Source: Aurantimonadaceae bacterium
Lineage (GTDB): Bacteria > Pseudomonadota > Alphaproteobacteria > Rhizobiales > Rhizobiaceae
Assembly: GCA_947474855.1 (NCBI GenBank)
Contig: CANJKV010000002.1
Coordinates: 20,292-84,291 of the forward strand
Length of the DNA stretch: 64,000 bases
Direction of reading: 5' to 3'
In this document: in pieces, positions 11,842-36,449 of the stretch
Layout: each line of letters opens with the position of its first letter
Position numbering within the stretch: the first letter of the stretch is position 1
The notes under the pieces: generated by a model
Seen by the model: the letters and a program-made list of their open reading frames with translations, nothing else
What the model was told of the DNA's origin: nothing
The model's database searches: none
Position numbers and translations under genes: made by a program

Positions 11842-11959
11842 ATGAACGGCCCTGGTGTATTGAGAAGGGACGATACGATCACTTCTCTCCAAAGGTTTCC
11901 GGATGACGATCGCACCCTTCCAATCGCCTGAGCCGCTCAAGCCCGCTGGCGCGCACCAT

Positions 11960-12145: not shown

Positions 12146-12150
12146 CCACC

Positions 12151-13816: not shown

Positions 13817-14000
13817 GAATCGTTAGGCGAAGGGCGGACGGCGATCGAGCCGGTTCTGCCTAGAGACAGACGCGGGCTGCAGCCGCTTGGATGTCGATCG
13901 CCGTTCATAAGGGCGCTCTTCCGAACTTTACGTGCAGCGGTCGGACCTCCCCAGGTCGGGCGACGCATGTGGGGTTCGGTCACGAGCCCGAGGTGCCGCG

Positions 14001-18670: not shown

Positions 18671-19131
18671 CAGCTCGCCGCAGGTGAAGGGACCGGGCGC
18701 CGTGGCATGTCGCCCCTCGACCCAGCCGATGGCCCCCTTCCGCGAGCGTTCGACCATCACGGGGTTCCGGCGGCGATCTCCCGTCTCGATCCAGCCGGCG
18801 GCGGCGGCATCGCCCCTCGCGCAGAACGACAAGGCAACGGCCCCTCCACGGCCGTCGAAGGGTCGCCTGTGACGAAGCGGCCGGTTCATGAGTCCGGACT
18901 TCGCGTTTTCCCCTTGCCACAAGGGCGTCGGCCATCGTCGCGAAAGGCACGTTCCGGAGGGATCGCGGCTACGCTCCGCCTCACGTCGTGGCCGGCAGGG
19001 AGAAGAGGCTCCGCGACTTTCCCGTTTCGCTTTTCCGGACAGCGCCGGCGGCAACGAGACCGGTTGCCAGCAAGGCGTGGAACGATCTCGCCACCAAAAT
19101 CTTCATTGCATATCAGGTATCATGGTGCTAC

Positions 19132-19476
19132 ATGAGTGGGACTAGACCCGCTAACCCCGCACACTCCCCCGAGATGGTCGCCCGATTGGCTCGCGAGAGG
19201 AAGGTCGAATTTTTGTGGGGAGTGCTTCAGGATATTCTCGGCTTTGGCTTGGACCGAGAGGACATATGTGAGTGGTTCGAGGGCTTCGAAGCACATATCG
19301 CACGTCATGACTGCTTCTTCCGCAAGGCGGAGGCGACCCGAAGATATCCTCCCGGCACGATTTCCGACTATTACCAAGCCCGTGTCGACATGTGCCGCGG
19401 AATGATATTCGTGAAGTTCACGATCTATCGGGGAAAGCTTGTGGTCACCTCGTTCAAGGACCTCGACAATGGTTGA
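19132..19476 (+). CDS. Small hypothetical protein (possible toxin partner of the downstream MqsA-like gene)
   Basis: The ORF is 114 aa from the ATG at 19132. It overlaps the next gene by 8 nt. The C-terminal 'MIFVKFTIYRGKLVVTSFK' beta-hairpin resembles small TA toxins. No family was recognised. Confidence 0.5.
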   Translation: MSGTRPANPAHSPEMVARLARERKVEFLWGVLQDILGFGLDREDICEWFEGFEAHIARHDCFFRKAEATRRYPPGTISDYYQARVDMCRGMIFVKFTIYRGKLVVTSFKDLDNG

Positions 19477-20566: not shown

Positions 20567-20714
20567 GAGCATTCCTTATCTTCCTTCGAAGCAAGTATAT
20601 CAGCGGGAAGGCGGATCAACCTCTCTCTTGCCCTCCATCTCACTCCTGAATGGCTTGTCAGGCACCCGAGCCATACCTCACCGATTGAGCATATTTCCTG
20701 GAAAGCATATCAGC

Positions 20715-22103
20715 ATGTCTTTCTCCGCAAGCGTCTACGAGGCATGCAAGGTCTCGCCGCGCATCTTCGTCATGCATCCAGGATATAAGAGGACTAATTT
20801 CTACGCGCAGCAGTTACGTGCCCTGGCTTTGGTCAGGGAAATGGTAGCGAGCGGCGATCTTTCCGATGATGCGCCCAGCCTGATCGTGGTCGGTGGCGGC
20901 GTCGCTGGCCTGACCGCAGCCGCCGCGGCACTGACCGCCCGAGCGATGGTAACGCTGATCGAACGCGTCGGCTATCTTGCCGAATACAAGGAGGCGGCAC
21001 ACCGCGAGCTCCATCCCAACCTTATCGCTTGGCCGTTTCAGGTTCCCAAGGCGATGACGACCCTGCCTTTTCTCAATTGGGCATGCGGCCCGGCAGACCG
21101 GGTTGCCGACGACCTTACACGACAATGGCAAAAGGACTTCGCAAGGCATGCATCCGCCGTGAAAGACACGGTGACGGAGCTTGTCGAGACAAAGGACAAG
21201 GTGGAGGTTATCTGCCAACATGGTCAGTCGCGCGTAGCGGACATCGTGCTAATGGCGGTTGGCTGGGAACGCGAGCGGATCGGCGGCAAGTCGATTGGCC
21301 CCAACTACTGGCGTCCACAGCCCTTTGACGACGGCGAGATTGTCGTCAGCGGCTCCGGAGACGGAGGCCTTATCGACCTAGCCTACCAGACCTACGGGCA
21401 AAAGACGGTGTCGGTGTCTCGCATGCTCGCATACATCCTGGAGCGCAAGCCTCATCGAGACTGGATAAGGAAGGCAGAGGAGGCGGCGCTGAAGAGCATG
21501 GCCGAGGCCGGCGACCAAGCACAGCGCGATGCCGCTTTCGAGCAACTGCAGGTCTTCTACGACAAGCTGACGATGGAGGACGAGGACTCGCGACTTTTGG
21601 CCACCTACAGACGGCCGCAGCCGCTCAAGGCACGACTGATCCACGAAAATCGGACGGCGTTCTCGCCCTTCGCCGCACCGATCAACAAGGTCCTGCTTTC
21701 GACGCTGACGAAGCCGCCTGCCGAGGCGGCTCGGCTCGAAAGAGGAACGGTGACCCTCTCATCCGAGGACAAGCTCGTGAAGGCTTCCACCGGAGCTCCA
21801 GAGGAGCTCGACGATAGGCGGATCATAATCCGTCACGGTGCGGCCCCGGCTGCCCTACAAGGCTCGCTCCTCAGCGACAAGCATAAGGACATGCTGGCGC
21901 AAGTTCCCATTGGGAACCTAGCTCAGGTCGTACCGGACGAATACGACTACGAGTTCTTCACGAAACAGCCCGCAAGGCCGATCGCCCCCCTCCCCATTCT
22001 ACCACCCCGACCTATTCTACGAGCGGGCGCAACAGCAGGTCGAAAGGATGGTGAGATACATCTGCGGCGACAACGAGACCTTCACGCTTTCTCGCGAGAA
22101 TGA
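20715..22103 (+). CDS. Two-dinucleotide-binding-domain flavoprotein (FAD/NAD(P)-dependent oxidoreductase); the C-terminus probably continues in another frame to 22233
   Basis: 'SLIVVGGGVAGLTAAAAAL' and a second 'IVVSGSGDGGLIDL' are Rossmann motifs. After the C-run at 21985-21990 the protein-like sequence switches frame ('PFYHPDLFYERAQQQVERMVRYICGDNETF...' ends at 22233). Confidence 0.7.
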   Translation: MSFSASVYEACKVSPRIFVMHPGYKRTNFYAQQLRALALVREMVASGDLSDDAPSLIVVGGGVAGLTAAAAALTARAMVTLIERVGYLAEYKEAAHRELHPNLIAWPFQVPKAMTTLPFLNWACGPADRVADDLTRQWQKDFARHASAVKDTVTELVETKDKVEVICQHGQSRVADIVLMAVGWERERIGGKSIGPNYWRPQPFDDGEIVVSGSGDGGLIDLAYQTYGQKTVSVSRMLAYILERKPHRDWIRKAEEAALKSMAEAGDQAQRDAAFEQLQVFYDKLTMEDEDSRLLATYRRPQPLKARLIHENRTAFSPFAAPINKVLLSTLTKPPAEAARLERGTVTLSSEDKLVKASTGAPEELDDRRIIIRHGAAPAALQGSLLSDKHKDMLAQVPIGNLAQVVPDEYDYEFFTKQPARPIAPLPILPPRPILRAGATAGRKDGEIHLRRQRDLHAFSRE

Positions 22104-22240
22104 CCGAACGTGGAAAGTGTCGACCTCGATACCCGAGGAAAGGCGAGACTTGGCGCCCATATTTCCTTTAGAGGTGGGCAAGTGCAAGGTAGAACTAACA
22201 GACTCATCTGCAAAATTCGAACTCCTCGCGTGAGATTGCG

Positions 22241-22954
22241 ATGATCAATGTAGATCAAATATCCGCAGGCAACAATGTCTACGTCGATGACGCGCAAGGG
22301 AATTCTGTCAAAATCAAGCTCATGGCACTCGCCAGATCGGACAAGTTAAAGAATCCGGTGGCGCTGGCGTGGATGGGAGGACGATCGATACCACCGGATG
22401 CCGACGTGTTTCTATCCGGCTCGCGCAGTTCCATTGGGCAGACGCGCTCCCTAGGAACGCTATCCGAGAGGGCGAAGGACTTCGGCTCCCTCATATGCCT
22501 GATCGAATTCGAGAGGACTGAAAGCGCGACGATTTCCGAGAGGACGGCTGCGGCCAAGGTTTCCCGCGATATAAGTCGTCCTGCGTTCGGTCATGGAAGG
22601 GTCCGCGTCAGCCGCGTCGCCTCTCCCGATGACAAGCCGAAGCGAACGAGAAGAAAGCATAACCAGGAAGCTACGTCCTCCGGGCAAAAGGGGTTCGTTA
22701 CGGGCGACATAGTAAATCCGGTGATTGTCGCCAAGGGAGGAGATGTCCGGCTGGAACGCGCAGCTGTTGTGCGGGGCAAGAGCGGACGAACCTTCGGCCG
22801 GGACGGCGACGGTGGCACCCCCGTCATCTCGACGAAAGGACGGGGTCTGGTCGGGTTCATTGTCGCCAAGGGGCCAGACAGGACCTTGATCCTCCCGGCA
22901 GACGAACTCGTTCGGAAACTCGGCATGCAGTTCCTGACAGTCACAGAGCCTTAG
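22241..22954 (+). CDS. Hypothetical protein with degenerate trypsin-like C-terminal segment
   Basis: 'GRDGDGGTPVISTKGRGLVGFIVAKG' mirrors the GDSGGP...G.vvGi motif of chymotrypsin-fold proteases, but with Gly in place of the nucleophile Ser. It lies 7 nt after the upstream stop. Confidence 0.55.
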   Translation: MINVDQISAGNNVYVDDAQGNSVKIKLMALARSDKLKNPVALAWMGGRSIPPDADVFLSGSRSSIGQTRSLGTLSERAKDFGSLICLIEFERTESATISERTAAAKVSRDISRPAFGHGRVRVSRVASPDDKPKRTRRKHNQEATSSGQKGFVTGDIVNPVIVAKGGDVRLERAAVVRGKSGRTFGRDGDGGTPVISTKGRGLVGFIVAKGPDRTLILPADELVRKLGMQFLTVTEP

Positions 22955-22963
22955 AGCCTCTGA

Positions 22964-23961
22964 TGCTCTGTTGAAACGTTCATGGAGCTTCCTGAGCGAG
23001 GAGCATGAGGTTGTGGGAGATGACGCTTAGAAGGAGTTCGCGGGACTGCGAAGCGGGCTTGCGGGCGGTCAGAGCTGAACCGAGGCGGCGCTTATGCTGG
23101 CTGAAGCCGCTCTCGACGTGCCAACGCTGGTTGTAGAGGGGTTTTGGGAAACGATGACGCATGGCTCGCCGATAGGGCGTTTTGGGCCAGCGCCGCCCCG
23201 TGTTGCGCCGGTTGAGGCGGATGAGCGTGCGGGCAACACCAAACTCCTCGCGGCAGAGGCGGTGGTTGTGCTCGGCGTCGTAGCCGGCATCGCCGAGCAC
23301 AGTGTGCAAAGGGACGTGCTCGGCGGCCTGACACACGGCGGGGATGAAGTCGGGCGAGTCCTGGCTGGGGCCAAGGCCCGGCACGGCTGCGAGGATGAAG
23401 TGGGATCGGGTATGCTGGACCACGGTGAGCTTGGGCCAGAGGCGCTGGCGATGGCCTTTGCGCTTTCGTCCCCGGCCTCGCCGATGACCGAAGTGAGCGC
23501 TGATGTGCCGCGTTTCCAGTCCGGTCGCATCCACCGCGGCCACGGGCGCGAGATCAATCAGGCCAAAGGCGCGGGCTCGTTCGACAGCGGTTGCCTGGAT
23601 GTCACCGAAAGCCCCTTTTTCTCGGCATCCGCCAGAATGCGGCGCGAGGCGTAGGCCAGCGTCGAATAGTGCGGCACCTTGGAAAGGCCGAGGGTTTGTC
23701 GCAGCTCGCTCCACTCGCCCACCAGCGTCACCACGCCCCGGTAGTCCGTGCGTAGGAACTGGCGCAGGACGAGAAGAGCGAAGAGCTGCGGTTGGGTGTA
23801 ATCCTTGCGCGACTATCGGCTGCCGTAGGCCGGCAGCGCGGACCGGCCCGCCATCAAGGCCTCCCGCGCTACTCGAACCGCGGACTTCGAAAGCTGCCGC
23901 ATCGCCGCCTCCCGTCAAAGAGGACGAAACCAGCCAGCCGAGCTGGGGTTTCAACAGAGCA
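22964..23961. mobile_element. IS5-family (IS903-group-like) insertion sequence with 14-bp terminal inverted repeats and 9-bp target duplication
   Basis: The inverted repeats are tgctctgttgaaac (22964-22977) and gtttcaacagagca (23948-23961). They are flanked by direct repeats agcctctga (22955-22963 and 23962-23970). Confidence 0.7.
22980..23902 (-). pseudogene. DDE transposase of the IS at 22964-23961, with an in-frame TAG and a frameshift
   Basis: The N-terminal part 'MRQLSKSAVRVAREALMAGRSALPAYGSR*SRKDYTQPQLFALLVLRQFL...' is in one frame. The DDE part '...HTVLGDAGYDAEHNHRL...YNQRWHVESGFSQHKRRLG...' is in another. Confidence 0.75.
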
Positions 23962-24012
23962 AGCCTCTGACAAAACCACTTTGCGACGAAGCGCCAAGTG
24001 ATGAGGGTGTAG
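23962..24012 (-). repeat. Terminal remnant (about 50 bp) of an IS427-group IS5 element, split by the IS903-like insertion
   Basis: 'agcctctgacaaaaccactttgcgacgaagcgccaagtgatgaggg' matches the right end and transposase C-terminus (LITWRFVAKWFC*) of the intact copy at 51.7 kb. Confidence 0.6.
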
Positions 24013-24090
24013 ACGGCCACTGTCTCGCGCTTGGGCGTCGCGGTCTGGGAGGGCTGCGACGCCCTTCTTTGTTCAGGAAGGGCATGAACG

Positions 24091-24215
24091 AAAAACGCCT
24101 GCCAGTGGGAGGACTGGCAGGCGCTGAAATGTGCCCGTTGGCTGGGAGGAGGATGCCTCGGGGCGGCTCGCATTGGGCTAATGGGAGGAGGAACCCGCCG
24201 CGAACAGTGGAATAT
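24091..24215 (-). ncRNA. CCUCCUCCC-motif sRNA (alpha-r14 / 'cuckoo' / CcsR-like), copy 1
   Basis: The reverse strand reads ...gcggcggguuCCUCCUCCCauuagcc...gaggcauCCUCCUCCCagcc...gccugccagUCCUCCCacuggcaggcguuuuu. That is two CCUCCUCCC loops plus a terminator hairpin with a U-run. Confidence 0.55.
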
Positions 24216-24787
24216 TCGTAACTGACGCCGGTACGATGCCGAAACGCTGATTTTGCATGGCAGCAATGCGGGCTGGGCGTTGGCCCTGCCGTAGGAGGTA
24301 GGCTGCCAACTCCGTGCTCAGAACCCTTGAACCGTGGCACCATGGTTCTGAGGGCCGACGGTCAGATGCCCGATCGCCAATCATCGAACCTAAGGGTGTG
24401 TCTCAGTGGAGGTTGGTGCCTCCTCGGGCGCGAATAAGCATGGAAGACGGGGTCTGACTCATCTTCGGTGCAGTTTGGCTGTTGGAATGGCGGTTTTGCC
24501 GGAGGCCTTCCATGCCATGCCGTCTCTCCCTATCGTCGCTTGTTCCCGCTGGGATCGTCGTTGACAGCTAGGATGTGTCGGACGAAGCGTTGATGGTGAC
24601 GGTATCGTCCCGCGCATCGACGGCGGCTTGTCCCTTCTGCTCTCGTCCCTCGCATAGGATCCACAGCCGCTACGATCGTCACCTCGACGATCTGCCATCG
24701 TCTGGTCGTGCCGTCCTGGCTCCGGCGATGCGTCGGCTCGTGATGCGATCGTGACAGCCGGGCGGGCCCTTGTCCGCTTCGAGCGCC

Positions 24788-26260
24788 TCATATGTCTCGG
24801 GCAAGCCTCGCAATCACGTCCATCGCGTCGCCCAGCCTTTTCCGGGAGGCGGTGGCCCAGCGTTCGGGAGCGCCGCGCCTGCAGAGGACGACGGCGACCA
24901 AGGGCGCGATCGAGGGCGAGATCCCGAAGCCTGCGACGAGGGCGGATGCGATACCGGCGACCCGCTCGCTTCCAGCCCGCCCGCAGGCAGCGTGAAGCCG
25001 CTCACGATCGACCTCGTCGGCCTCGCAGGCCTCGGACATCAATCCATCCGCGCTACGCTCCAAGCGAGTGACGAGCCCCGCGCCAAGGCGGCAGAGACCT
25101 GGAATGACCTTGCCAGAGAACGAGATCGGCACCGCACAGACGGATGCGAGGCCGGGATCGAGACGCATGGCCTCCGCTCGCAGACCGATTTCCGTGAGCA
25201 GGGCATCCTCGGAGTAGCTCAGGGCCTGCGCCGGCGGAAAGGCTCCCAGCGAGGAGCGGCCAAGTGGGCTCGGCTCGCCCCGCTCGCCCGCAGGTTCGTC
25301 CCATCGATCGAGCAAGGAGGCGTTCGAGGGATCGCAGACGGCGTTGCCCAGGCGCCGAGCAATTCGCCCAAAGCCGACATCCGTCGGATGGACCTCGTCC
25401 CACCACTCGTCGCCTCCGATCTCCCGGCGGCAGTCGACGACGACGAACCGTTGCCGTAGCGACGGATCGTCTACAAGCCGCTCGAGCGCCGCGTGGTAGG
25501 TGTCGATCAGACGGCGCGTGACGCGGCGCTGAGCCTCGTGCCCGGCGATGCCCGAGGATGCGAGCGGAACTCCGAGCCAACGGCCTCCTCTCGGCACGGG
25601 ATAGGTGTAGGAGTGGCAGATCACGCGACCCGCTCCGCCATCGAGGGCGTCGATCGCGACGCGACGGCAGTTCTCGATCAGCCGGGAAAGGAGACCGCCG
25701 CTGTCGGCGCCATCCCGCCCGCGTTCCGTCACGAGGTCGTCCGTCCCCTCCTCCAGGCCGGCCGCGAGCATTTCGTCCGCACCGTTGCTCAGGATGACCG
25801 CATCCGGCCGGTCGGCGGCCACCGCCTTCAGGAGGGCCTGCCGGACCATAGCATCGCCGAGGCTACCGTTCACCCCTACGCAGTCGACGGCGAAGCGGCG
25901 GGAAAGGTGTTCGACGAGATCGGTGACAAGGAACGGGAACCTCACCCAGGAGTCGCCCTGTGCGACGAGTCTCGGCCCCTTCCACGTCCGTATCCGGCGC
26001 TGATAGCGGCAGCTCCGCCTCCAGTCGAAGAGCCTTTCCAGCGAGCACAGGGCGAGGAGGCTGGCCTCGTCGCAGTCCTCGACGGTCGCGGGATCGACGA
26101 CGACGCGTGGCCGGAAAGCCGTACTGCCGACGCGATCGAGCCGCAGGTATGGCCGGATTCGCGAGTCCGGCACCCACGGATCGAGCAGCATCCGCTCGAG
26201 CTCGCTCGCCCGGATGCGGACGACGCCCAGACCCGCCTCACCTAATCCTTCGGGATTCAT
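24788..26260 (-). CDS. SGNH/GDSL-like hydrolase domain protein with long C-terminal extension
   Basis: 'RLVAQGDSWVRFPF' is GDS block I and 'WWDEVHPT' is the DxxH block V. The alternative GTG start at 26296 adds 12 aa. Confidence 0.65.
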   Translation of the reverse strand: MNPEGLGEAGLGVVRIRASELERMLLDPWVPDSRIRPYLRLDRVGSTAFRPRVVVDPATVEDCDEASLLALCSLERLFDWRRSCRYQRRIRTWKGPRLVAQGDSWVRFPFLVTDLVEHLSRRFAVDCVGVNGSLGDAMVRQALLKAVAADRPDAVILSNGADEMLAAGLEEGTDDLVTERGRDGADSGGLLSRLIENCRRVAIDALDGGAGRVICHSYTYPVPRGGRWLGVPLASSGIAGHEAQRRVTRRLIDTYHAALERLVDDPSLRQRFVVVDCRREIGGDEWWDEVHPTDVGFGRIARRLGNAVCDPSNASLLDRWDEPAGERGEPSPLGRSSLGAFPPAQALSYSEDALLTEIGLRAEAMRLDPGLASVCAVPISFSGKVIPGLCRLGAGLVTRLERSADGLMSEACEADEVDRERLHAACGRAGSERVAGIASALVAGFGISPSIAPLVAVVLCRRGAPERWATASRKRLGDAMDVIARLARDI

Positions 26261-26435
26261 GCTCCGCTCGTGGCTCCCTGATAGGTTCCGACGCACGTGG
26301 AACGGCCGTCGCGGGAGCCCGAGACCTCAGCCGGCGGGCGGGCTCCAGACCTCTTCGGCTCGAATCCGCGCCGTCCCTGCCATGCGAGGCGTCACCGCCG
26401 CGTGACACCTCAGCGCCATCGCCCGGGCACCTGGA

Positions 26436-27173
26436 CTACGGTATCCCGCGCCGCGTGGCCTCGACGATCCGTGCATGGGAGCGCTTCCAGGAGGGCGTCT
26501 CCGACAACGTCCACGGCGCGGCGAGCTCCCCTCTCTCGTCCGGCATCGCCGCCAGGGCCCGCACGAGGAGGAGAGCGTCGATTCGCTTCAGGCCGATGCG
26601 GCTTCGACGCACGACGTCCAGGAGGCTGGCCTGCCGCGAGACTCCCAAGTCCGACCGTTCGAGGATCGCCCGCCATGTCCGGTCCTTGAAGAAGGTCTTC
26701 CTCGCCACCCGAAGCAGATCGGCGGCCTCCGAACGATCGAGGAGCCCCCCAGCGAGCAGCGCGTCCACCTGGGCCTCGCAATCCACGAGAGCCTCGGTCA
26801 GCGGCACGAAGCCTAGCTCGGCCGGCCCGTGGAGCTGGGCGACTGCGGCGTCGTCGTCGAGTTCGCCCTCGACGTAGCGCCTCGCGATCTCGCCGACCGC
26901 GACCATGCCGAACTCGTGGCACTCGGCTGCCCTGAGCGCTCCGAGCGACGCGGCGCCGAGCACCGCCACGCCCTGCGAGAGCGCATGGAGGATCTCCTTG
27001 TGCCAGACGGCGGCGACGGTCTCGAAGAGGCCGTCCACCAAGCCGACGACGTTCGCTCCCTGGAGGACGGCAGCCAGGATGTCGCCCTGCGCCGCGGGAG
27101 GACGCCTTTCGATGCCGGGGGGCAACCCGTCGAGGCCATGGAGGCTCGGCCCCGCGAAGAGGACCTTCGTCAA
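26436..27173 (-). CDS. TfuA-like protein
   Basis: 'VLFAGPSLHG...PPAAQGDILAAV...VVGLVDGLFETVAAVWHKEILHALSQGVAVLGAASLGALRAAECHEFGMVAVGEI' matches the TfuA family pattern. The proposed TTG start overlaps the YcaO stop (TTGA at 27170-27173). The upstream part of the 516-aa track ORF is shadow. Confidence 0.8.
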   Translation of the reverse strand: MTKVLFAGPSLHGLDGLPPGIERRPPAAQGDILAAVLQGANVVGLVDGLFETVAAVWHKEILHALSQGVAVLGAASLGALRAAECHEFGMVAVGEIARRYVEGELDDDAAVAQLHGPAELGFVPLTEALVDCEAQVDALLAGGLLDRSEAADLLRVARKTFFKDRTWRAILERSDLGVSRQASLLDVVRRSRIGLKRIDALLLVRALAAMPDERGELAAPWTLSETPSWKRSHARIVEATRRGIP

Positions 27174-28369
27174 AGCCGCAACATCGCGCCCATGGCGCGA
27201 GAGCCAGGCCGCCAATGGCGGTTGGAGGGACGATCCTCGAGCTGCGGGGCGAACACCCGGACCACGTTGACGCCGGCGGCCGCTCCCCCGAGTTCCACGA
27301 CGGGCACGTCCGAGATGCCGACGCGCCGAAGATGCCCGGCGACAGCGGACAGCAGTTCGGCCGGGGCCGTGGCGAGCGGTCCGCATGCGTCGCGAGGCGC
27401 CGCCCTCCCCTGGGCCGCGACGAGAGACGAATAGATGCCGAGGCCCGGTCGAAGCGGCTCGCGGTACTCGGCGGGGTCGAGGTCGTCGCGGGCCCCGGAT
27501 ATGTTGGTCACGCGGGTCTGGGCCGCTTCCGTGATGGCGCGGACGGCGGCATGCGACGCAACGGGATGGCAGCCGGTGCCGGCCGCGAGGTCGAACTGGG
27601 CCCGCACCTCCCGACCTCGGTCGCGCAGGACCGCCTGGATCACGGGGATGCCGATGTCCGTCGTCAGGTCGAAGAGCCGCAGCTCGACCCCTGCCTCCCA
27701 GATCCGGTCGGCCAGCGCATCCACGCTCTCGTCCTCGAACGAGGCTGGATCGACCATCAACTGTTCCAGATCGTCCCACGACCTGAAGGCATGCAGCGTC
27801 GCCGCGTCGCGCTCGACGAGTTCGCAGACGGCATGCAGCACCGCTTCGTCCAGGTCGTTGCCCGAGGCGAGACCGTTGGAGGATCGCGACATCCCTCCGA
27901 AGACGTAGCCCGTATGGTCCAGTCGGGCCGCCTCGAGCGGCACCCAGACGGCGTCGCCGCCGAGGAGTTGCCTGCCCTCCAGCCAAGCGAGTTCGTCGCC
28001 ATCGGGCAACGACGCGCCCGCGGGCATGAGACGGACCGGATCGTGGACGCGCGCGCCCTCGGCCACGAGTGCGCTCCTCGTGGCGAGGCGCGTCACACGC
28101 TCCGGATGCTCGGCGATGGCGAACTCGACGGCCTCCATGACGGCGGAGGCCATGGCGAAGTCGTCGTCGATCCCCTTGCCCTGGTTCACCGCCAGGGTCA
28201 GCGAATTGGGACGCATCGCCGCCCAGACCGGGATGCCGATCCTGTCGAGGCCGGTCTGTCTAGCGAGACGGGTGATCCCGAAGGCACCGAAACGAGGCCG
28301 CATGCGGCGGACGGTTTCCGCCGGTTCGCGGATCCGTCCGCCGCGTGGCAGTCTCCGCGTCCCGCTCAC
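27170..28369 (-). CDS. YcaO-like ATP-dependent amide-activating enzyme
   Basis: 'GIPVWAAMRPNSLTLAVNQGKG', 'SSNGLASGNDLDEAVLHAVCELVERDA' and 'ISGARDDL' are typical YcaO blocks. The GTG start overlaps the upstream stop (GTGA). Confidence 0.9.
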   Translation of the reverse strand: MSGTRRLPRGGRIREPAETVRRMRPRFGAFGITRLARQTGLDRIGIPVWAAMRPNSLTLAVNQGKGIDDDFAMASAVMEAVEFAIAEHPERVTRLATRSALVAEGARVHDPVRLMPAGASLPDGDELAWLEGRQLLGGDAVWVPLEAARLDHTGYVFGGMSRSSNGLASGNDLDEAVLHAVCELVERDAATLHAFRSWDDLEQLMVDPASFEDESVDALADRIWEAGVELRLFDLTTDIGIPVIQAVLRDRGREVRAQFDLAAGTGCHPVASHAAVRAITEAAQTRVTNISGARDDLDPAEYREPLRPGLGIYSSLVAAQGRAAPRDACGPLATAPAELLSAVAGHLRRVGISDVPVVELGGAAAGVNVVRVFAPQLEDRPSNRHWRPGSRAMGAMLRL

Positions 28370-28605
28370 CCGTTCTCGGAGAATTGCCGGCTCGTGAGGT
28401 CCGCCACCGTGGGAACGGCCACGGCGACGTCGACGTCCTTCACGACGGAGAAGCCGTTCTTGCGCATGTTCTCGACGGTCTTGGCCGTTCCCTGATCGAT
28501 CCCGCCGGCATCACCGCTTGAATACGGCTGCACGGTTCCCTTGTCGGTGTCCACGACCCAAAGCTGCTGCTGGTCGCCCCGGTGGCCGATTACGAAGATC
28601 GTCAT
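28366..28605 (-). CDS. 79-aa ORF translationally coupled to YcaO (candidate substrate/precursor or partner protein)
   Basis: The ATG at 28605 is preceded by GGAGAAGG. The stop overlaps the YcaO start. The sequence is MTIFVIGHRGDQQQLWVVDTDKGTVQPYSSGDAGGIDQGTAKTVENMRKNGFSVVKDVDVAVAVPTVADLTSRQFSENG. It is hidden in the tail of a 598-aa shadow ORF. Confidence 0.6.
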   Translation of the reverse strand: MTIFVIGHRGDQQQLWVVDTDKGTVQPYSSGDAGGIDQGTAKTVENMRKNGFSVVKDVDVAVAVPTVADLTSRQFSENG

Positions 28606-28619
28606 GCCTTCTCCTGTCC

Positions 28620-30635
28620 TTACCTGAAGCCGGCTTCGCTGAGCGCACCGGCATAGTGGGCAACGTGATCCTTCGACCGCAGCGGGATCGTGGCGATCCA
28701 GTCGTCGATGCGGAAGTTGGGTTGGTCCTCGAGGGCTCTCGCGACGTAGAAGGCCGCTTCCTTCCGCCGGCCGCTTCGCGCGAGGCAGGCCGCCGTCAGC
28801 CTGTTCGCCGGTCCGCGTCGCTTCATACGCTCCAGGTGCGACAGGGCGCCCTCGTAGTCGTCGAGGAAGAACAGCGCGCCCGCCGCCGTCCAGAGATAAT
28901 CGTCCGGCGGGATCGGGTTGAGCTCGATGGCCTTCTCGATGCGCCCGAGCGCCGGCAGCATGTCGGAGCAGTGCGTCAGGGCGTTGGCGTGGTCGGCGAG
29001 GATGTCGGCGTGGTGAGGAGCAAGACGCTCGGCTCGCGTCAGTCCGTCGACGGCATCGTCGAGCCCGCCGAGAAACAGGGTGGCGCTCGCGAGTTCCCGC
29101 ACCGCCTCGCCGCTGAACGGATCCACCTCGACGGCACGGGTCGCGATCCGCCGCGCCTCCAGGAGTGGCTCGCGGTCGGTCCGGGAGAGAAGCAGCCATT
29201 CGAGGGTGAACGTCCTCGCGATCCCGTTCAGAGCCGGCACGAATTCGGGCGCCCGTTCTGCGGCCTGCGCGAACGCCTTCCGCGCCCTCCTGAGATCCGG
29301 AAGGTCGAGGACCTGAAGATGCGAGCGCCCTCTGAGATACAGATGATAGGCATCCGGTTGCCGCGCCGACTCGAAGCGTGCCAGTTCCATGCGCTCGACA
29401 CGATCCGCAAGCGCGGTCACGATCGACCGCGACAGCAGGCGATGATGCTCCCCCGGATCGCCCGCCCGCAGATCGAACTCCTCGCCCCAGAGCGTCACCC
29501 GATCGACCATACGCACGAGCCTGACGACGAGGCGCGCCCCGCCGCCGAAGCTGCGCACGCTCGTCTCCGCGACGTAGCGTGCGCCGAACAGGTCCTTCGG
29601 AGGGTTCTCGCGCGAAAGCTGCCGGGTCGTATGCGGCGCGATGACCGCGATCGATCTCAGCCGGCACAGGCCGAGCACGACGTCCTCGACCAACGCTTCG
29701 GCCAGGTCGACATGCGCGTCCTCGACTCCGGCGCGCACGGGCATGAGGACGCACAGCTTGGGAATGGACGGGGGCTGGCGAGCCTCCGGCTCCGGCTGGC
29801 TCGCGACTTGCGCTGCGCTCCGGGGAACGTCCGCTTCGGTCGCCGACGCGATCGTCCGCCCGAGCTCCGACAGCAAGCCAGCCGTCCTCCCGTCCGGGCT
29901 GGTTCCGAGTTCGGCCTCGAAGCGGCATCGCATCTCGGCGAAGACGGCCTGCGCCGCCGCGATGCCATGCCCCTTGGCCCTCAGGCCGATCAACGAACGC
30001 CAGGCATCCTCGCGATAGGGGTCGACGTCGAGAAGGCGCCGGAGCGCCGTCTCGCCGTCCACGCCGCCGACCGTCGCCGCTCCCGCGAGCACCAGGTCGC
30101 CGTAGCGCTCCCGGAGGCGGACGCGCTGCGCCCTGATCCAGGCGTCGAGTGCCTCGCCACATCCCGAGACACCCTCCAGCAGATCGCCACGGTAGAGTTT
30201 CACGAGCCTCGCGAGCTCGCTGCCGGTCCGAGGCGCCTCGAGCTCGTCGAGCGTCGCGAGATCGACCTCGAGGTCGGGAGCGGCCGCGACCAACCGCACC
30301 TCGGTCCGGGAGATGGACAGGATGTCGACCCCGAATTCGGTCTGGCGATCATGTATCCGCGACAGGAGCTGGCGGAGGTTGGCCAGGGCGCCGGCCTGCC
30401 CCGCATCCTCGTACATCGAGGTCGCGAGCCACGAACGGGACGCCCGCCGGCCGACCGAGAGCTGCAGAACGGCGGCAAGGACGAACGCCTTCTGCGGCAG
30501 GGCCGTCGAGATGCCGTCCCCGCCGCGATGCAGGGCCGGAGCGCCGAGAAGAAGGAGGAGATCCCGTCCGTCACCCATGTCGTCTTCTGCGTCGTCCTCA
30601 AGCTTTCGCAAGCAACGTCTATCAACGGCCCGCAA
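28620..30635 (-). CDS. SARP-type regulator: OmpR/PhoB-like winged helix + BTAD + C-terminal TPR region
   Basis: 'LLLLGAPALHRGG...ALPQKAFVLAAVLQL...RSWLATSMYED' is the winged helix. 'LVKLYRGDLLEG...DAWIRAQRVRLRERY...DPYREDAWRSLIGLRAKGHGIAAAQAVFAEMRCRFEAELGTSP' is the BTAD. TPR-like repeats sit at the C-terminus. It ends 14 nt before the 79-aa ORF. Confidence 0.8.
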   Translation of the reverse strand: MRAVDRRCLRKLEDDAEDDMGDGRDLLLLLGAPALHRGGDGISTALPQKAFVLAAVLQLSVGRRASRSWLATSMYEDAGQAGALANLRQLLSRIHDRQTEFGVDILSISRTEVRLVAAAPDLEVDLATLDELEAPRTGSELARLVKLYRGDLLEGVSGCGEALDAWIRAQRVRLRERYGDLVLAGAATVGGVDGETALRRLLDVDPYREDAWRSLIGLRAKGHGIAAAQAVFAEMRCRFEAELGTSPDGRTAGLLSELGRTIASATEADVPRSAAQVASQPEPEARQPPSIPKLCVLMPVRAGVEDAHVDLAEALVEDVVLGLCRLRSIAVIAPHTTRQLSRENPPKDLFGARYVAETSVRSFGGGARLVVRLVRMVDRVTLWGEEFDLRAGDPGEHHRLLSRSIVTALADRVERMELARFESARQPDAYHLYLRGRSHLQVLDLPDLRRARKAFAQAAERAPEFVPALNGIARTFTLEWLLLSRTDREPLLEARRIATRAVEVDPFSGEAVRELASATLFLGGLDDAVDGLTRAERLAPHHADILADHANALTHCSDMLPALGRIEKAIELNPIPPDDYLWTAAGALFFLDDYEGALSHLERMKRRGPANRLTAACLARSGRRKEAAFYVARALEDQPNFRIDDWIATIPLRSKDHVAHYAGALSEAGFR

Positions 30636-30705
30636 CCCGTCAATCCGGCGCCCGGTCGCCTGTCACGCTTTCGTCACGCTGGAGCGGCCGCCGTCTTGTT
30701 CGCCG

Positions 30706-31650
30706 TCAGGGCTTCGGCCCCGATGCCCGCATTGGGGCGGCACGCGAAAGGACCTGGAACCAGAATGGAGCGCCGAGGCTGACTGCGAGACCCGTCAGCA
30801 GCCAGCCCAGTAGCTTCAGCAGGCCTTCCTCGCGCAGCAGGGACCAGGCGGCGCTTCCGCATCGCCGGACGATCGCCGCCTCCCCGGACTGGGCCACCAG
30901 ACAGTCGAAGCCGATCGGAAGGCCTTCCGACTGCAGACGGAGAAGGTCGCGCGCCACTGCCGAGGTTTCCGGATCGCTCGCGGCCGGCGCCGGAACCAGG
31001 TCGCCTTCCGCTTGGATCCGGTCGGAGATCTCCTCCGCGGCGGAGCGAAGTCCCGGCGAGTTCCAGAAGCTTCGGACGAGTTGGACGGAATCGACGTTGC
31101 CGAGCGCCGCGACGAGGACGCCCAGCACGAACAGACGCTTCCGGGCGTAAGCCTGGTACCATCCGGAGACGCGGTCCATGCTGGAAGAATACCAGGCCTC
31201 GATGCCCTTGATCATGGCGTCGTAGTCGGCGCCGGCGACGTCGACGATCGGCCGGAGCGCCTGCGCGACCACGGGGTGATCCAGGGAGATGGCCTCGAGC
31301 GACGCCTTGAGCGATGCCGCGTCTCCCGTCCGGGCGTCGGCCACGCCGGCGAGGCGTCCCCGCGCGACGACGACGTCCGCGAGAGCGCGCGCGAAGGATC
31401 CGGGATCCAGGTAGGAAGGCGGGCGTCCCTTGGCCACGTCGTCGCGGTAGAGGGCGCCCACGAGAGGATGCTGCATGACACGCCTGAAGATCGGCTGATC
31501 CGGCAGGAGATGGCGGATGCCTCGCTTCAGGAAGGTACCGCGGGTCCCGCGCCGCGAGGCGATCCATTCGTTCACCCCGCTCACGAAGGTGCAGAGCAGG
31601 AAGTAGACGACGGCCATGGACAGCGCCGTCTCGAGAAGGCGGAAGATCAC
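30706..31650 (-). CDS. Hypothetical integral membrane protein
   Basis: There are hydrophobic helices at the N-terminus (AVVYFLLCTFVSGV), in the middle (LFVLGVLVAALG) and at the C-terminus (LLGWLLTGLAVSLGAPFWF). The start overlaps the upstream stop by 4 nt. Confidence 0.7.
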   Translation of the reverse strand: MIFRLLETALSMAVVYFLLCTFVSGVNEWIASRRGTRGTFLKRGIRHLLPDQPIFRRVMQHPLVGALYRDDVAKGRPPSYLDPGSFARALADVVVARGRLAGVADARTGDAASLKASLEAISLDHPVVAQALRPIVDVAGADYDAMIKGIEAWYSSSMDRVSGWYQAYARKRLFVLGVLVAALGNVDSVQLVRSFWNSPGLRSAAEEISDRIQAEGDLVPAPAASDPETSAVARDLLRLQSEGLPIGFDCLVAQSGEAAIVRRCGSAAWSLLREEGLLKLLGWLLTGLAVSLGAPFWFQVLSRAAPMRASGPKP

Positions 31651-32966
31651 GAAGTCCTCCCCTGGGCGATCCTGAAGTCCCTCGCCGAAGGGATGGGCTG
31701 GCGTCCCACGTCGGCGCGTCCGGCCACGGCGAGGTTGCGGGGCCTGTAGTTCCTATCCACGTCCCACTTGAGCCTTGCCGAAGGATCGACGACCTGGGCG
31801 ATCCCGTCGCTCTCGACGAGCATCCTGCGGTAGTGCCGCCCGCCGGCGAACGCCTTAGCCTTGGCATATATGCCGCCCAGGAACTCGCCGTAGGAGTCTC
31901 GAACGGGAGACAGGTACTCGTTGCCGTCGAGCTTGAACTCCGGCGGCGGACTATCGGCGAAGGGGGGAACCTGACGGTCGCGGCGGAACACCAGTCCGAG
32001 TTCCGCGGCGGCGTTCGCCATCCAGAACAAGGGCGCCTCGCAGAGGAGGTCGTCGTCGTACCCTCCGCCGACGTTGGCATGCGCGCCGGGAAACCAGCGT
32101 TGCTCGACCCGGGTCCATAGCCCCCGATCCGGGGCGGTCCACAACGTGGCTTCGTAGTCGGCGCGGTGTTCGTCGATGGCGACCGCATGATACGCGTTCT
32201 CCACCACGCGCCCGAGCTTGGTGTCGTGGAACTCGAACCTTCCTCGACCGAAGGGCAGGGTCGCGCTTCCGAGCCAGGGAAGCCCAAGTGCGCCGACCGT
32301 GTCCCAGACTCCGACGAAGGCGATCTTGACCGTGAGGGCGGATCGCGCCCGGAACCCGGCCCAATCGGCCTGGTTCCGCGCCGGTCCGTGGGCCGGGTCG
32401 GCCTTTCTCCGGTATAGCTCCCACGCCTCAGCGATCTCGGGAGTGCTTCGGTCCAGAGGACGACCGCGCAACTCGGGCCTGCGCTCCCAGACCTTGTTCC
32501 TGTCGACGATGCCGACGCGGTTGATCATGCCGGCCAGGCTTCTGGCGGTGAAGGCGCCGCGGCTGAAGCCGAAGAGGAAGACGAGATCTCCTCGCGAGAA
32601 CGTCTCCTCCCGTTCGGCCGATGTGGGCTCGTAGGAGTCGTAGGGTCCGGAAGCGTCCGGGCGCGGCGCGCCAGGAAGGTAGGTGTTGACCAGCCAGCAA
32701 TAGCCCTCGAGCACGTTCCGTCCAAGGCCGAGACCGAGGGCTCCTCCGCGGATCCGGGTTCCCCATTCGGTTCCGACGCCCTGGTCGTAGAAGGTCAGCT
32801 GATCGGGGCATTGCGTGTCGACCGACGCCAGGACCCTATACAGACGCGACACGTTCGTCTGGCTTTCGAGACTGTTCCAGGTTCCGTCGAAGCAGAGCGC
32901 AAGGCGGCGGCAGCCGTCCGGCAGGGGAATGTAGTCGAGCTTGGCCTTCTCCGCGGTCATGGTCAT
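31647..32966 (-). CDS. DUF2235 (T6SS Tle1-like) alpha/beta hydrolase
   Basis: 'RLALCFDGTWNS', 'YDQGVGT' and 'FLFGFSRGAFTARSLAGMI' (the GxSxG nucleophile elbow) are present. The start is set at the ATG at 32966 (MTMTAEKAK). Confidence 0.85.
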   Translation of the reverse strand: MTMTAEKAKLDYIPLPDGCRRLALCFDGTWNSLESQTNVSRLYRVLASVDTQCPDQLTFYDQGVGTEWGTRIRGGALGLGLGRNVLEGYCWLVNTYLPGAPRPDASGPYDSYEPTSAEREETFSRGDLVFLFGFSRGAFTARSLAGMINRVGIVDRNKVWERRPELRGRPLDRSTPEIAEAWELYRRKADPAHGPARNQADWAGFRARSALTVKIAFVGVWDTVGALGLPWLGSATLPFGRGRFEFHDTKLGRVVENAYHAVAIDEHRADYEATLWTAPDRGLWTRVEQRWFPGAHANVGGGYDDDLLCEAPLFWMANAAAELGLVFRRDRQVPPFADSPPPEFKLDGNEYLSPVRDSYGEFLGGIYAKAKAFAGGRHYRRMLVESDGIAQVVDPSARLKWDVDRNYRPRNLAVAGRADVGRQPIPSARDFRIAQGRTS

Positions 32967-33222
32967 GGCCGATCGATCGATGTTCGAGGATTGGAAAGCG
33001 GCATCGGAGCGGAGAGAACAGCCGCGGCGAAGGCCACGGCCGCCGCGGGATGGAGACAGGGACCTCGACGTCGCAACTCCGATCGAAGCCTTCCGGTCGT
33101 CTCGTCGCTCGAACGTAAGACGGGACGGAAAGTCCGCGATGGTCGCGCGGTCAGGGGGCTCCGACGTCCGGGCTCGCGCCGGGAGCGAGGCGAGAAGCTC
33201 GTCGCCCCTGCACCGCCTGGCT

Positions 33223-34074
33223 TCAGCAGAAATCCAGGTATCCGAGCAAGCCGGACATCCTGACCTTTCGCGTCGATCGCCGGAACACGCCGTAGCCGTC
33301 GCGGGAACCACCGTTGTTCGTGTTGCCCTCGATCGTGACGATCCTGTCGCCCTGGACCTTCTGGACGATCCCGGCGTGTCCCTTGCCGCCTCCCGTGTCG
33401 AAGAGAAAGACCATGCCCGGCTTGATCGCGGCGGGCTGCGCCTCGGGAGGCGTCAGGATCCTGGCGGTACCTCTGTTCCTCATCTGCCACAAGGCGTGGA
33501 CCCCGGCGGTCCTGGGCAAGGGAGACTCGTCGCCGAGAACCTTGGCCGCTTCCAGGAACACCCACTGGATGAAGCAGATGCACCAGGGAAAGCTGCCGTT
33601 GCCCGGATTGAGGCCCGACGCCCTGATGTATTCGTCGACTTCCGGTCCCCGGTTCGATCCCCTGGGCTCCTCCATCACGCCGATCTGCGACGCGGCGACG
33701 GAAACCACAAGGGAACGCAGGTCCACCTCCCGGTCGACCACCGCCTCGTCGCCAGCCGTATCGCCGAAGAGGGATCCCCAGGTCTTTCGCCCGACCTGAC
33801 CGTCGACCTCGAGCTCCTCGCCCTGGGCGTCCAGGTGCCTGGCCTGGAAGAGGCGGACGGCATTCTCCGTCGCTTCCCCGAAGTCGCCGTCCACGACGAG
33901 GTTCGAGTTCATGGCCTGGTTCAGGCGAGCCTGGATCGCCCTCACCGCATCCGAGTCCATCTGGCCACGGGCGATGATCGCTCCGGGATAGGGCCGAGGT
34001 CGACGTGGCGCCGACCGTTGCGGATCAAGACTGACGACTACGCCGGGCTTGGCATCGACTGCGATGTTGGACAT
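33223..34074 (-). CDS. Peptidoglycan-binding domain + CHAP amidase/peptidase
   Basis: 'AVRAIQARLN...VVDGDFGEATENAVRLFQ...VDGQVGRKTW' is PG_binding_1-like. 'GSFPWCICFIQWV...KGHAGIVQKV...IEGNTN' is the CHAP Cys/His pattern. The ATG at 34074 is preceded by GGAGGAG. Confidence 0.85.
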   Translation of the reverse strand: MSNIAVDAKPGVVVSLDPQRSAPRRPRPYPGAIIARGQMDSDAVRAIQARLNQAMNSNLVVDGDFGEATENAVRLFQARHLDAQGEELEVDGQVGRKTWGSLFGDTAGDEAVVDREVDLRSLVVSVAASQIGVMEEPRGSNRGPEVDEYIRASGLNPGNGSFPWCICFIQWVFLEAAKVLGDESPLPRTAGVHALWQMRNRGTARILTPPEAQPAAIKPGMVFLFDTGGGKGHAGIVQKVQGDRIVTIEGNTNNGGSRDGYGVFRRSTRKVRMSGLLGYLDFC

Positions 34075-35305
34075 TGTCCGCTCCTCCGTTCGAACGTGAC
34101 CTGGCTTCCCTAACGAGACCTCGCGCTTGGCGTCTCGACCTGCATCCTCGGCCGCCAGGCGGCCGCAAGCACACGGTCCCGCATACCGAACACGCGACTC
34201 CGACTGCGGCAGCGTCCCTCGAACACGGGCCGACCTGCCGATCGAAAATCGTCGACCCGTCAAGACACCTCGAGCGCGAGCCTTGAGAACGCCAGGCTCG
34301 AAGCAAGCAGTCCAAGTGCCGGCATCTTGGAACCACAGCCTGCGTGACAGATGCGTGACGTAGGGTCATGCAAGCATCTCGGTGAACGATCCCTGCCCTT
34401 CGACAGTCGGCCTCCTTGGCCGATGACAATCCCGAGGGACGACGAAGCGGCACCGTCGTCTCGACTCGCCTTCCGCACGATCGCCAGACGTCGACTACGT
34501 TCGGCACGCGCGTCGCCGCTCGCGCCGGACCGCGGCACGGACGTTCTTGCGGCGATCGAACGAAGCCTGCCGATCGCGGATGGAGCGCCGCGCATCCGAC
34601 GGGGATCGCGTCGCTTCGGTCGGACGGCCTCCCGCACGCAAGGTCCCGAGGCGTCGACCTTGCCGGTAGATATCGGCCTAGGCCCTGCCGCAGCCTGGCT
34701 TCGATCGACGGGTCGAGCGTTCGACGGGATCGTTTCACGGCGACCGGCCGCTTGGCCGATCGACGGCCGGCGCCCGTCACGTCCGCGTCACGTGTCATCG
34801 CGGATATCGCCCCCGAGGGTGTCATGGCCTTTCGCAGGCGCAGGAGAGGCATGGTCGATCACGACGGATCATCGATCGCTGGGGGGAGGCCCAGCCACGA
34901 TGCCGGCATCGGGAGAGTGATGGGGACGGTCACGTTTCACGACCAGGCGGTCGACGCTCGCACCGTGGCTTGTTGGCTGGAAGTCGCCCCGGGACCGCCG
35001 TCGTCGAGCCGTTCGGCCCGGATCGGCTTCCTGGCGGTCCGTGGCCTCGCGACGCCGTATCGAGCACACCGTCCAGGAAGATCTCCGTTCAGGTCCGAAG
35101 GCCGACGCGGCTTCCTCCATGCGTCGCCGGAGGCCGGCGTCGCACCGCCCCAACGGTCGAAGCGGCACGAAGGCCCCACTGCCAGGGAAAGCCAGGGACC
35201 GGTTCGGGCGCAACTTGCCTCTCCTGCGATGGGCGTTGTATTGCGCCCGGGCCTCGTCGCATCCCGCCCGAGACTTCGGTCGGACGCCCTTGCGAGGCAG
35301 ACGCA

Positions 35306-36445: not shown

Positions 36446-36449
36446 GTCC

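Follow-up and report, generated by a model that had tools for sequence, protein, structure and literature searches.

What do the YcaO–TfuA enzyme pairs of proteobacteria modify? For TfuA-associated YcaO proteins of this phylum the lack of known substrates has been noted since at least 2015 (PMC4603692), and a 2021 survey reports >1000 proteobacterial TfuA-related clusters, >500 of them in Rhizobium, with no known product (PMC8120280). We considered the question at one locus of an Aurantimonadaceae bacterium, within a 64,000-nt stretch of contig CANJKV010000002.1 (hereafter the window). Here an earlier note, made from the sequence alone, had seen a ycaO and a tfuA gene preceded by a 79-codon open reading frame (ORF), and had proposed the product of this small ORF as the likely substrate. 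We consider it fairly probable, from comparison with related loci, that the 79-aa product is a precursor thioamidated by the YcaO–TfuA pair in a four-gene cassette.

A chain of four genes

All genes of the cassette are encoded on the minus strand (Table 1). The earlier note had described three ORFs chained by 4-nt overlaps, the first of them with a strong ribosome-binding site, and every detail was correct in the minus-strand sequence: in GTGA (28369–28366) the GTG start of ycaO overlaps the stop codon of the small ORF, in TTGA (27173–27170) the TTG start of tfuA overlaps the stop codon of ycaO, and GGAGAAGG precedes the small ORF. The only omission in that observation was the abutting gene of a regulator with SARP-type and TPR domains. 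Its TAA codon (28622–28620) is only 14 nt 5′ of the small-ORF ATG, with GGAGAAGG inside that gap; thus four genes, not three, stand head to tail. The cassette is probably transcribed as one unit and translationally coupled.

The gene starts are well defined. GTG 28369 is the sole start codon 5′ of the conserved N-terminal block of YcaO, and the tfuA orthologue of an Antarcticirhabdus-type locus (L009) starts at the same position, with a GTG codon. For the small ORF the start is fixed by the Antarcticirhabdus orthologue, which has a stop codon 6 codons 5′ of the same ATG. As judged from the related loci described below, the minimal conserved unit is these four genes: SARP/TPR regulator, small ORF, YcaO and TfuA.

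The small ORF is a gene

In GC-rich DNA a 79-codon frame could be open by chance. In the program-made ORF list the small ORF has no entry of its own and forms the last 79 codons of a 598-aa open frame (28366–30162) that overlaps the regulator gene, as the earlier note had pointed out when it called the ORF the tail of a shadow ORF, and long spurious ORFs are common at 66% GC. Against a chance frame stand the GC content by codon position (0.62/0.41/0.85), which follows the same pattern as in the neighbouring genes, and the ratio of nonsynonymous to synonymous substitution rates (dN/dS) in comparison with the orthologues of Antarcticirhabdus aurantiaca R10: 0.15 for the small ORF, 0.29 for YcaO and 0.26 for TfuA. 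The small ORF is under stronger purifying selection than either enzyme gene; its product is 77% identical to the R10 orthologue at the amino acid level.

The ATG, the stop codon and the ribosome-binding site are conserved too, and the homologues, from at least four genera, are all part of this cassette. The earlier note had suggested checking conservation of the small ORF beside YcaO–TfuA in relatives, and it is conserved in Antarcticirhabdus, Aureimonas, Devosia and Phyllobacterium. Several metagenome contigs encode the identical 79-aa protein, and there too the neighbours are the same. We conclude that the small ORF is a real gene; the chance-frame explanation, to which we assign a negligible probability, is already refuted by conservation at the sequence level. 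No Pfam or NCBIfam model matched the small ORF.

Linkage of the small ORF to YcaO and TfuA

Related loci were retrieved and numbered (L-numbers); with a YcaO alignment we located 80 genome loci, from Antarcticirhabdus, Aureimonas, Devosia, Rhizobium and other Hyphomicrobiales, the nearest relative of the window YcaO being that of Antarcticirhabdus (73% identity). The adjacent, co-directional arrangement of ycaO and tfuA seen in the window is conserved throughout: TfuA is encoded directly 3′ of YcaO in 80/80 loci, and a SARP/TPR homologue stands beside the pair in 75/75 loci with enough flanking sequence. Apart from one Aureimonas locus, L011, each locus for which upstream sequence exists has an open frame of 45 codons or more in the gap (250–400 nt) that separates the SARP gene from ycaO. 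We read most of these frames as candidate precursor ORFs.

The small-ORF family is hardly visible to simple searches: a single-sequence word-indexed protein search returned only the protein itself and one 77% relative, and the family was seen only through hidden Markov model (HMM) searches of the loci and a full HMMER scan. The HMM searches detected ORFs of the window class, with the pattern M.IF.IG...LW.VD...TV.P ... R..G...K.VDVAVA ... R.F/L.S, in Antarcticirhabdus, four Aureimonas loci, ~15 Devosia loci and one uncultured alphaproteobacterium. The HMMER scan of 1.8 billion representatives gave 16 matches at E up to 1e-3, one of them spurious: P0136 (1010 aa), a repeat-rich surface protein, was rejected as a false positive. 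A profile search of 5.8 billion proteins gave 26 matches, all unnamed or ‘hypothetical protein’, several of them from Phyllobacterium.

Sampling from the small ORF instead of from YcaO led to the same neighbours. In Phyllobacterium genomes the order is SARP, small ORF, second small ORF, YcaO, TfuA. The pattern of the Phyllobacterium-type subgroup identified nine metagenome loci, 8/9 with informative flanks, and SARP upstream and/or YcaO–TfuA downstream were present in 8/8; a metagenome scan with the pattern of the window subgroup found nothing. Neither direction of sampling produced a family member outside the cassette.

In a neighbour-joining tree of YcaO proteins the loci group by small-ORF class, the pattern expected of an enzyme and its substrate. 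The substrate proposal of the earlier note has thus gained comparative support, from linkage in both sampling directions and from small-ORF classes that follow YcaO clades, while the thioamide chemistry is assigned from homology.

Two Aureimonas loci depart from the common order. In L011, YcaO (4995–6206) and TfuA (6206–6898) are followed by SARP (7081–9039) and the small ORF (9060–9293), so that the SARP and small-ORF pair is 3′ of ycaO–tfuA; in L010 this pair is inverted downstream of ycaO–tfuA (small ORF at 7253–7023, minus strand), and a degenerate copy of the small ORF is kept just 5′ of ycaO (4720–4914).

The small ORF, which stays at the 3′ end of the SARP gene where the pair has moved, might accordingly encode a protein that partners the SARP/TPR regulator or binds to it as a ligand, for example as a signal or anti-activator, the YcaO–TfuA substrate being encoded elsewhere. 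TPR domains often bind peptides. We regard this alternative as quite unlikely: the small ORF is within 3 kb of YcaO–TfuA in every case, its classes track the YcaO clades, the repeated-core architecture described below fits a precursor of a modified peptide, and the YcaO fails the curated models of both clades with a known remote substrate. The two ideas are compatible, in that the modified peptide could itself be the ligand.

Other small-ORF classes occupy the gap in other loci. Those of Rhizobium (L056–L088 and L092, at ~4610–4910) have a gap ORF of an unrelated-looking class, ~41–48 aa, ending in HAL[KR]FR; in other Devosia clades the ORF, depending on its class, either ends in SRKF[FY]R[HQ] or begins with MQITFPGPDG. 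In an outgroup cassette on a plasmid of Azospirillum ramasamyi (L093, 526–7273) a 1057-aa protein with an adenylate/guanylate cyclase domain replaces SARP, a 65-aa hypothetical ORF precedes YcaO–TfuA and a Crp/Fnr regulator gene follows.

YcaO and TfuA of the window

Both enzyme identities given in the earlier note were upheld by Pfam. The YcaO protein matched PF02624 over the whole profile (positions 1–325 of 325; E = 1.3e-61, 209 bits with a cut-off of 25.7), and TfuA matched PF07812 (E = 3.5e-39, 133.7 bits with a cut-off of 30). The acidic residues of the MEAxE and CELVERD blocks of YcaO are invariant across 29 homologues. The best relative with a solved structure is the thioamide-forming YcaO MJ1094 of M. 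jannaschii (6PE3/6PEU; 2.4e-29), and the solved TfuA 6XP8 matched residues 5–210 of the window TfuA at 8.7e-28.

The best-scoring NCBIfam models were the equivalogs for McrA thioglycine formation, with scores below the cut-offs (YcaO, TIGR03266, 195.8 vs 365; TfuA, NF033432, 153.7 vs 235.2). The window YcaO is not a member of the E. coli-type family either (NF040716, 571 positions; 15.3 bits vs a cut-off of 700), and TfuA is never encoded near YcaO proteins of that uL16-thioamidating clade (PMC13063428). Since it fails both curated models and has TfuA adjacent, the window YcaO belongs to neither clade with a demonstrated remote substrate, a membership that the earlier note had named as a way for its proposal to fail (15 vs 700 and 196 vs 365, in rounded scores). 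By homology, the locus would install a backbone thioamide.

An azol(in)e-forming cyclodehydratase of thiazole/oxazole-modified microcin type was tried and rejected: the score to the SagD-type azole model TIGR03604 was sub-threshold (110.7 bits vs a cut-off of 219), no E1-like/Ocin-ThiF partner and no dehydrogenase was found among the Pfam-scanned or conserved neighbours, and the small protein has no Cys, which also bears out the remark of the earlier note that the product is not Cys-rich.

A related possibility is that the small ORF does encode the substrate and the chemistry differs, an oxazoline or methyloxazoline being formed from Ser or Thr, or an amidine, with a different role for TfuA. 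The C-terminal tail holds T66, T71, S72 and S76, the SagD-type match exists below threshold, and stand-alone YcaO enzymes make amidines (PMC8442711). We judge this alternative very unlikely. The partner proteins are missing from the neighbours just mentioned, the translation of tfuA is coupled to that of ycaO, and the closest YcaO of known structure forms a thioamide, as do all characterised YcaO–TfuA pairs (PMC6511847, PMC8120280).

Proposed leader and core, and relatives with tandem repeats

Conservation along the small protein is uneven. In a set of 22 members the mean pairwise identity is 0.41 for residues 1–27, 0.14 for residues 28–47, 0.40 for residues 48–64 and 0.19 for residues 65–79. 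Two conserved blocks, residues 1–27 (IFVIG..LWVVDT.KGTVQP) and 48–64 (R..G.SVVKDVDVAVAV), are thus separated by a variable linker and followed by a variable tail, which carries the motif D-x-[ST]-x-R-x-[FLH]-S-x-[DN]-G. An AlphaFold2 model, built from a shallow alignment and of low confidence (mean predicted local distance difference test score, pLDDT, 60), has strands at residues 3–8, 11–19 and 24–27 and a helix at 38–49; residues 55–79 are below pLDDT 50, and the tail (65–79) is predicted to be disordered. A Foldseek search of the PDB with this model returned nothing better than E 0.9, and with such values we assign no fold, neither RRE/PqqD-like nor beta-grasp.

The small ORF of the window has a single unit without tandem repeat. 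Several relatives have more. The L023 protein consists of one N-terminal region and ~7 copies of GVDVAVAATARSDAASHQLYRD; P0130 has two C-terminal units; L030, from a different small-ORF class, has 2 copies of G[VI]AAHVLYR[ED]. In Phyllobacterium-type loci a second precursor gene is present between the first one and ycaO (Table 1). It encodes a similar N-terminal region and 1–8 core units, the number of units differing between close relatives: 7–8 copies of DGRSDASDRAFSF in L089, L090 and L094, imperfect ..SERAHSAGP.. repeats behind one N-terminal region in L097, and a single-core version in L099.

The tail of the window protein (D-L-T-S-R-Q-F-S-E-N-G) can be aligned with the units of the Phyllobacterium type (D-A-S-D-R-A-F-S-F-D-G) and of L023 (D-A-A-S-H-Q-L-Y-R-D-G), and its C-terminus coincides with the [DN]-G that forms the repeat junction in the multi-core relatives. 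Multiplication of the C-terminal segment alone, 2–8 times behind one N-terminal domain, favours a leader-plus-core precursor. We thus favour, on these alignments, a precursor with a conserved leader and a variable core from which short peptides would be excised.

The earlier note had suggested a small modified protein rather than a leader–core peptide: the small product might be thioamidated and stay uncleaved, as an intact protein like the McrA and uL16 substrates. The model places three strands and a helix in its N-terminal 50 residues, conservation extends over a long region, the cassette has no conserved protease or exporter, and YcaO enzymes that act on folded proteins are known (PMC13063428). 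This suggestion is not favoured and seems unlikely to us. In several lineages it is the C-terminal unit alone that has been multiplied, and no other part of the protein is as variable or as poorly ordered as the tail; such a pattern is typical of excised cores, as in the thiovarsolins; and the confidence of the model is too low to claim a stable fold.

A sulfur carrier of the ThiS/MoaD type was also tried for the small ORF. Such carriers require a C-terminal Gly-Gly. The candidate was rejected, as the C-termini of the family vary (..ENG, ..GNA, ..QFS, ..RKK, ..TSK and others) and some members have repeat arrays.

The linker of the window protein has a Gly-rich segment (residues 31–37, GD-AGG-ID, at ~28497–28515; G[SA]GG[IVF]D in close relatives) that superficially resembles a double-glycine cleavage site. 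Conservation of the segment does not extend to the whole family, and the vicinity has no C39 peptidase gene.

Proposed pathway and points against it

In the following pathway the role of the small protein as substrate, the thioamide chemistry with its site, the source of the sulfur, the processing and the regulation are all inferred. The 79-aa precursor would be made on the ribosome, its conserved part (residues ~1–64) serving as a leader recognised by YcaO or by YcaO and TfuA together and its variable, probably disordered tail (~65–79) as the core. YcaO with ATP would activate a backbone amide oxygen in the core, and TfuA would deliver sulfide, probably from a thiocarboxylated ThiS-like carrier encoded elsewhere, to give one or more thioamides; the roles of TfuA and ThiS in sulfide delivery are summarised in PMC13063428. 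Trimming of the precursor is probably left to host peptidases, given that the cassette encodes no conserved protease or exporter; what remains would be a short thioamidated fragment that resists proteases, as has been suggested for the thiovarsolins. The SARP-type protein would activate the operon, possibly through GCGTGAC direct repeats 5′ of its own gene.

Several observations weigh against a thioamidated leader–core precursor. The leader is long (~64 residues) and may fold in the AlphaFold2 model, which also fits an intact modified protein; the model itself is of low confidence (pLDDT 60), and the Foldseek search was blank. Secreted bioactive peptides are not usually made by a cassette that lacks conserved genes for a protease, an exporter and immunity. 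With Ser and Thr present in the core, oxazoline formation is chemically possible. The Aureimonas loci L010 and L011, where the small ORF has kept to the SARP gene and not to ycaO, could instead speak for a regulatory role. Finally, the leader classes are hard to unite: the HMM of the class-A leader gave nothing significant against the leaders of other classes (best E 7.3), and hhalign between leader classes gave an in-register match that is weak (E 0.0017, probability 15%). A leader motif h-x-h-x-D-x-x-T-G-K-x-E common to all small-ORF classes is weakly supported by these sequence comparisons.

The regulator gene and its upstream repeats

The regulator protein matches Pfam BTAD (1.6e-6) and TPR models. 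A profile of 15 orthologues matched AfsR (8HVR, 1e-11) and EmbR (2FEZ, 7e-9) over positions 4–249 and TPR proteins over ~460–620; BTAD was detected in 15/15 orthologues and Pfam Trans_reg_C in 1/15 only. The architecture is thus an N-terminal winged helix with BTAD, an uncharacterised middle domain and C-terminal TPR repeats. Metagenome copies of the protein are called at 652 aa. We read the gene as encoding a SARP-type activator with a TPR domain, DNA binding being predicted.

SARPs bind heptamer repeats at 11-nt spacing. A direct repeat of this form, AGCGTGAC-N3-AGCGTGAC, precedes the regulator gene (Table 1); an exact 7-mer with an 11-nt period arose in 27/2000 shuffles. The position of the repeat is kept in the Antarcticirhabdus-type loci L009 and L001 (GTCGTGAC-N3-GCGTGAC) though the flanks diverge. 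The repeat is a candidate SARP binding site, as far as spacing and conservation can tell.

A second exact GCGTGAC-N4-GCGTGAC is 3.7 kb off, at 34342–34359 (plus strand), near the CHAP/Tle1-like gene block, and three more sites with 1–2 mismatches are at 26389–26406 (plus), 17519–17536 (minus) and 34776–34793 (minus). The window has 5 such sites vs 1.9 expected, and 3/100 shuffles reach 5. These sites could be a small SARP regulon, or chance. A scan with promoter and terminator consensus sequences gave nothing useful.

One could go further and see in the cassette a self-contained signalling module and not an antibiotic pathway. The released thioamidated fragment or fragments would be the ligand of the SARP TPR domain, and SARP would switch on its own operon through the GCGTGAC repeats, perhaps with the repeat-bearing neighbours. 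The invariable SARP linkage (75/75), the small ORF that moves with the regulator, the lack of a conserved exporter, protease or immunity gene, and the second exact repeat are all compatible with such a module, to which we give little credence at present. If true, alphaproteobacteria would have an RRNPP-like circuit that senses a peptide with a modified backbone.

Comparison with known systems

The closest characterised analogue is the thiovarsolin system of Streptomyces varsoviensis, with precursor VarA, YcaO protein VarY and TfuA protein VarT; deletion of varA, varY or varT abolishes production (PMC6511847). The var cluster has no protease, and release by host peptidases of a short protease-resistant thioamide peptide has been proposed (PMC6511847). 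Both systems combine precursor, YcaO and TfuA without a dedicated protease, both range from single to tandem cores (1–5 in the var family, 1–8 among relatives of the window), and both have Arg in the repeated core (APR there, [DES]-R-x-x-S here). The likeness is architectural only: the precursors have no detectable sequence similarity, and the window peptide has one core without APR or GPR. We rejected membership in the thiovarsolin family on the absence of APR/GPR repeat cores. The host of the var cluster is an actinobacterium, and var also encodes a heme-oxygenase-like enzyme, an ATP-grasp ligase, an amidinotransferase and an exporter of the major facilitator superfamily, none of which is conserved here; the window leader is much longer, with its two conserved blocks, and the SARP/TPR gene is always attached.

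Thioamitides (thioviridamide-like peptides) were considered too. Their hallmarks are genes for a decarboxylase, a kinase/lyase pair and a methyltransferase, and a C-terminal core Cys. This candidate was rejected: the window peptide has no Cys, and around the cassette stand a weak GDSL-like ORF, genes for a Tle1-like lipase and a CHAP protein, and unknowns, none of them conserved across the related loci.

The McrA thioglycine system (TIGR03266 and NF033432; 6PE3/6PEU, 6XP8) provides the best curated models and structures for both enzymes, and ATP-dependent backbone O-to-S exchange is presumably common to both systems. It differs from the window pair in that the window scores are far below the equivalog cut-offs and that its substrate is a large enzyme encoded elsewhere, with no adjacent small ORF. 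To our knowledge no McrA gene is to be expected in an alphaproteobacterium.

The uL16-thioamidating YcaO of E. coli (PMC13063428) is proteobacterial as well and installs a backbone thioamide, as expected here. Unlike the window protein (399 aa, TfuA adjacent), it recognises a folded ribosomal protein, is described by a 571-position model and has no TfuA nearby. The trifolitoxin locus of Rhizobium, from which TfuA has its name, belongs to the bacterial order of the window. It was there that TfuA was first connected with an antibiotic made from a ribosomal peptide (cited in PMC4603692), and the relationship is a lead from the literature.

The cassette type itself has been seen before. Malit et al. 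(2021; PMC8120280) mined genomes for ‘TfuA-related’ clusters of Rhizobium, Agrobacterium, Devosia and Aureimonas. Their tables list Aureimonas sp. AU12 (NZ_BBWH01000024, our L010) and Devosia insulae (NZ_LAJE02000165, our L024), and the legend to their Figure S3 gives the order TfuA, YcaO, hypothetical protein, SARP family regulator. In RefSeq the genes of the Rhizobium version carry the names BTAD regulator, hypothetical protein, YcaO-like and TfuA-like. The survey characterised no product, and the window organism is absent from its accessible parts. Nor do the accessible text and legends mention a precursor family of the window class or variants of it with several cores, the constant presence of SARP, or the agreement of precursor classes with YcaO clades.

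Neighbourhood of the cassette

When the neighbour ORFs of 82 loci were clustered, the SARP gene, ycaO and tfuA alone proved to be conserved, with no conserved protease, exporter or transporter, immunity gene or tailoring enzyme; a fourth ‘conserved’ cluster was rejected as an antisense shadow ORF of ycaO. The 502-aa GDSL-like ORF 3′ of tfuA (24788–26296) was not counted in the cassette, since it has one partial homologue in the related loci. The genes at 30706–38360 look like an inter-bacterial conflict or defence block (Table 1); none of them is conserved beside the cassette in other genera.

Further off, an alphaproteobacterial small RNA of the Rfam family ar14 was matched at 24090–24208 (minus strand; 62.2 bits vs a gathering threshold of 58.8), within the 5′ part of a DDE transposase ORF (22980–24266). 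Stretches at ~10000–14000 and 18000–24000 have a GC content of ~0.60 vs ~0.68 elsewhere and few ORFs with high third-position GC, and adjoin a ParA-like ATPase gene (17528–18670) and the transposase gene. They may be acquired DNA or reflect a plasmid or island context.

Table 1. Features of the cassette and its surroundings in the window, and second precursor genes of related loci (positions within the locus)
Feature	Position	Strand	Remark
SARP-type regulator gene	28620–30578	−	652 aa from ATG 30578; alternative first in-frame start 30635 gives 671 aa
Direct repeat AGCGTGAC-N3-AGCGTGAC	30662–30680	−	11-nt period; ~85–100 nt 5′ of the regulator ATG; candidate SARP site
Ribosome-binding site GGAGAAGG of the small ORF	28607–28614	−	Read from sequence; one base before ATG
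Small ORF, 79 aa (MTIFVIGHRG...TSRQFSENG)	28366–28605	−	ATG 28605–28603, TGA 28368–28366
Small ORF residues 1–64, proposed leader/recognition region	28414–28605	−	Conserved blocks 1–27 and 48–64
Small ORF residues 65–79 (PTVADLTSRQFSENG), proposed core peptide	28369–28413	−	Boundary inferred
Small-ORF stop codon	28366–28368	−	Inside GTGA overlap with ycaO start
ycaO, 399 aa, GTG start	27170–28369	−	ATP-dependent backbone-amide activating enzyme, TfuA-associated type
tfuA, 245 aa, TTG start	26436–27173	−	Partner protein supplying sulfide equivalents (role from homology)
314-aa unknown ORF, Tle1-like phospholipase gene (1.2e-69), peptidoglycan-binding/CHAP gene	30706–34263	−	Directly 5′ of the cassette
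PRTase-CE gene and 636-aa unknown ORF	34970–38360	+	Diverging from the Tle1/CHAP block
Second precursor gene, L089	7373–7840		Phyllobacterium-type locus, between first precursor gene and ycaO
Second precursor gene, L090	7340–7879		As above
Second precursor gene, L094	432–932		As above
Second precursor gene, L097	961–1533		As above
Second precursor gene, L099	2537–2794		As above

Significance

The cassette type is already known from genome mining and RefSeq annotation; what is added here is a defined candidate substrate and a core motif. A small ORF beside YcaO–TfuA as substrate will be no surprise to a specialist. The precursor family, its multi-core variants and the product have no description in the literature searched. 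The cassette is widespread in soil and plant alphaproteobacteria and chemically uncharacterised, and its cultivable carriers include Antarcticirhabdus aurantiaca R10, Leaf isolates of Aureimonas such as Leaf427, and Phyllobacterium, for example strain YR620. What YcaO–TfuA pairs do in proteobacteria is a long-standing question that three genes now suffice to test directly. Should plant-associated bacteria turn out to make a short thioamide peptide with this cassette, it would be the first characterised proteobacterial thioamidated ribosomal peptide in the literature searched.

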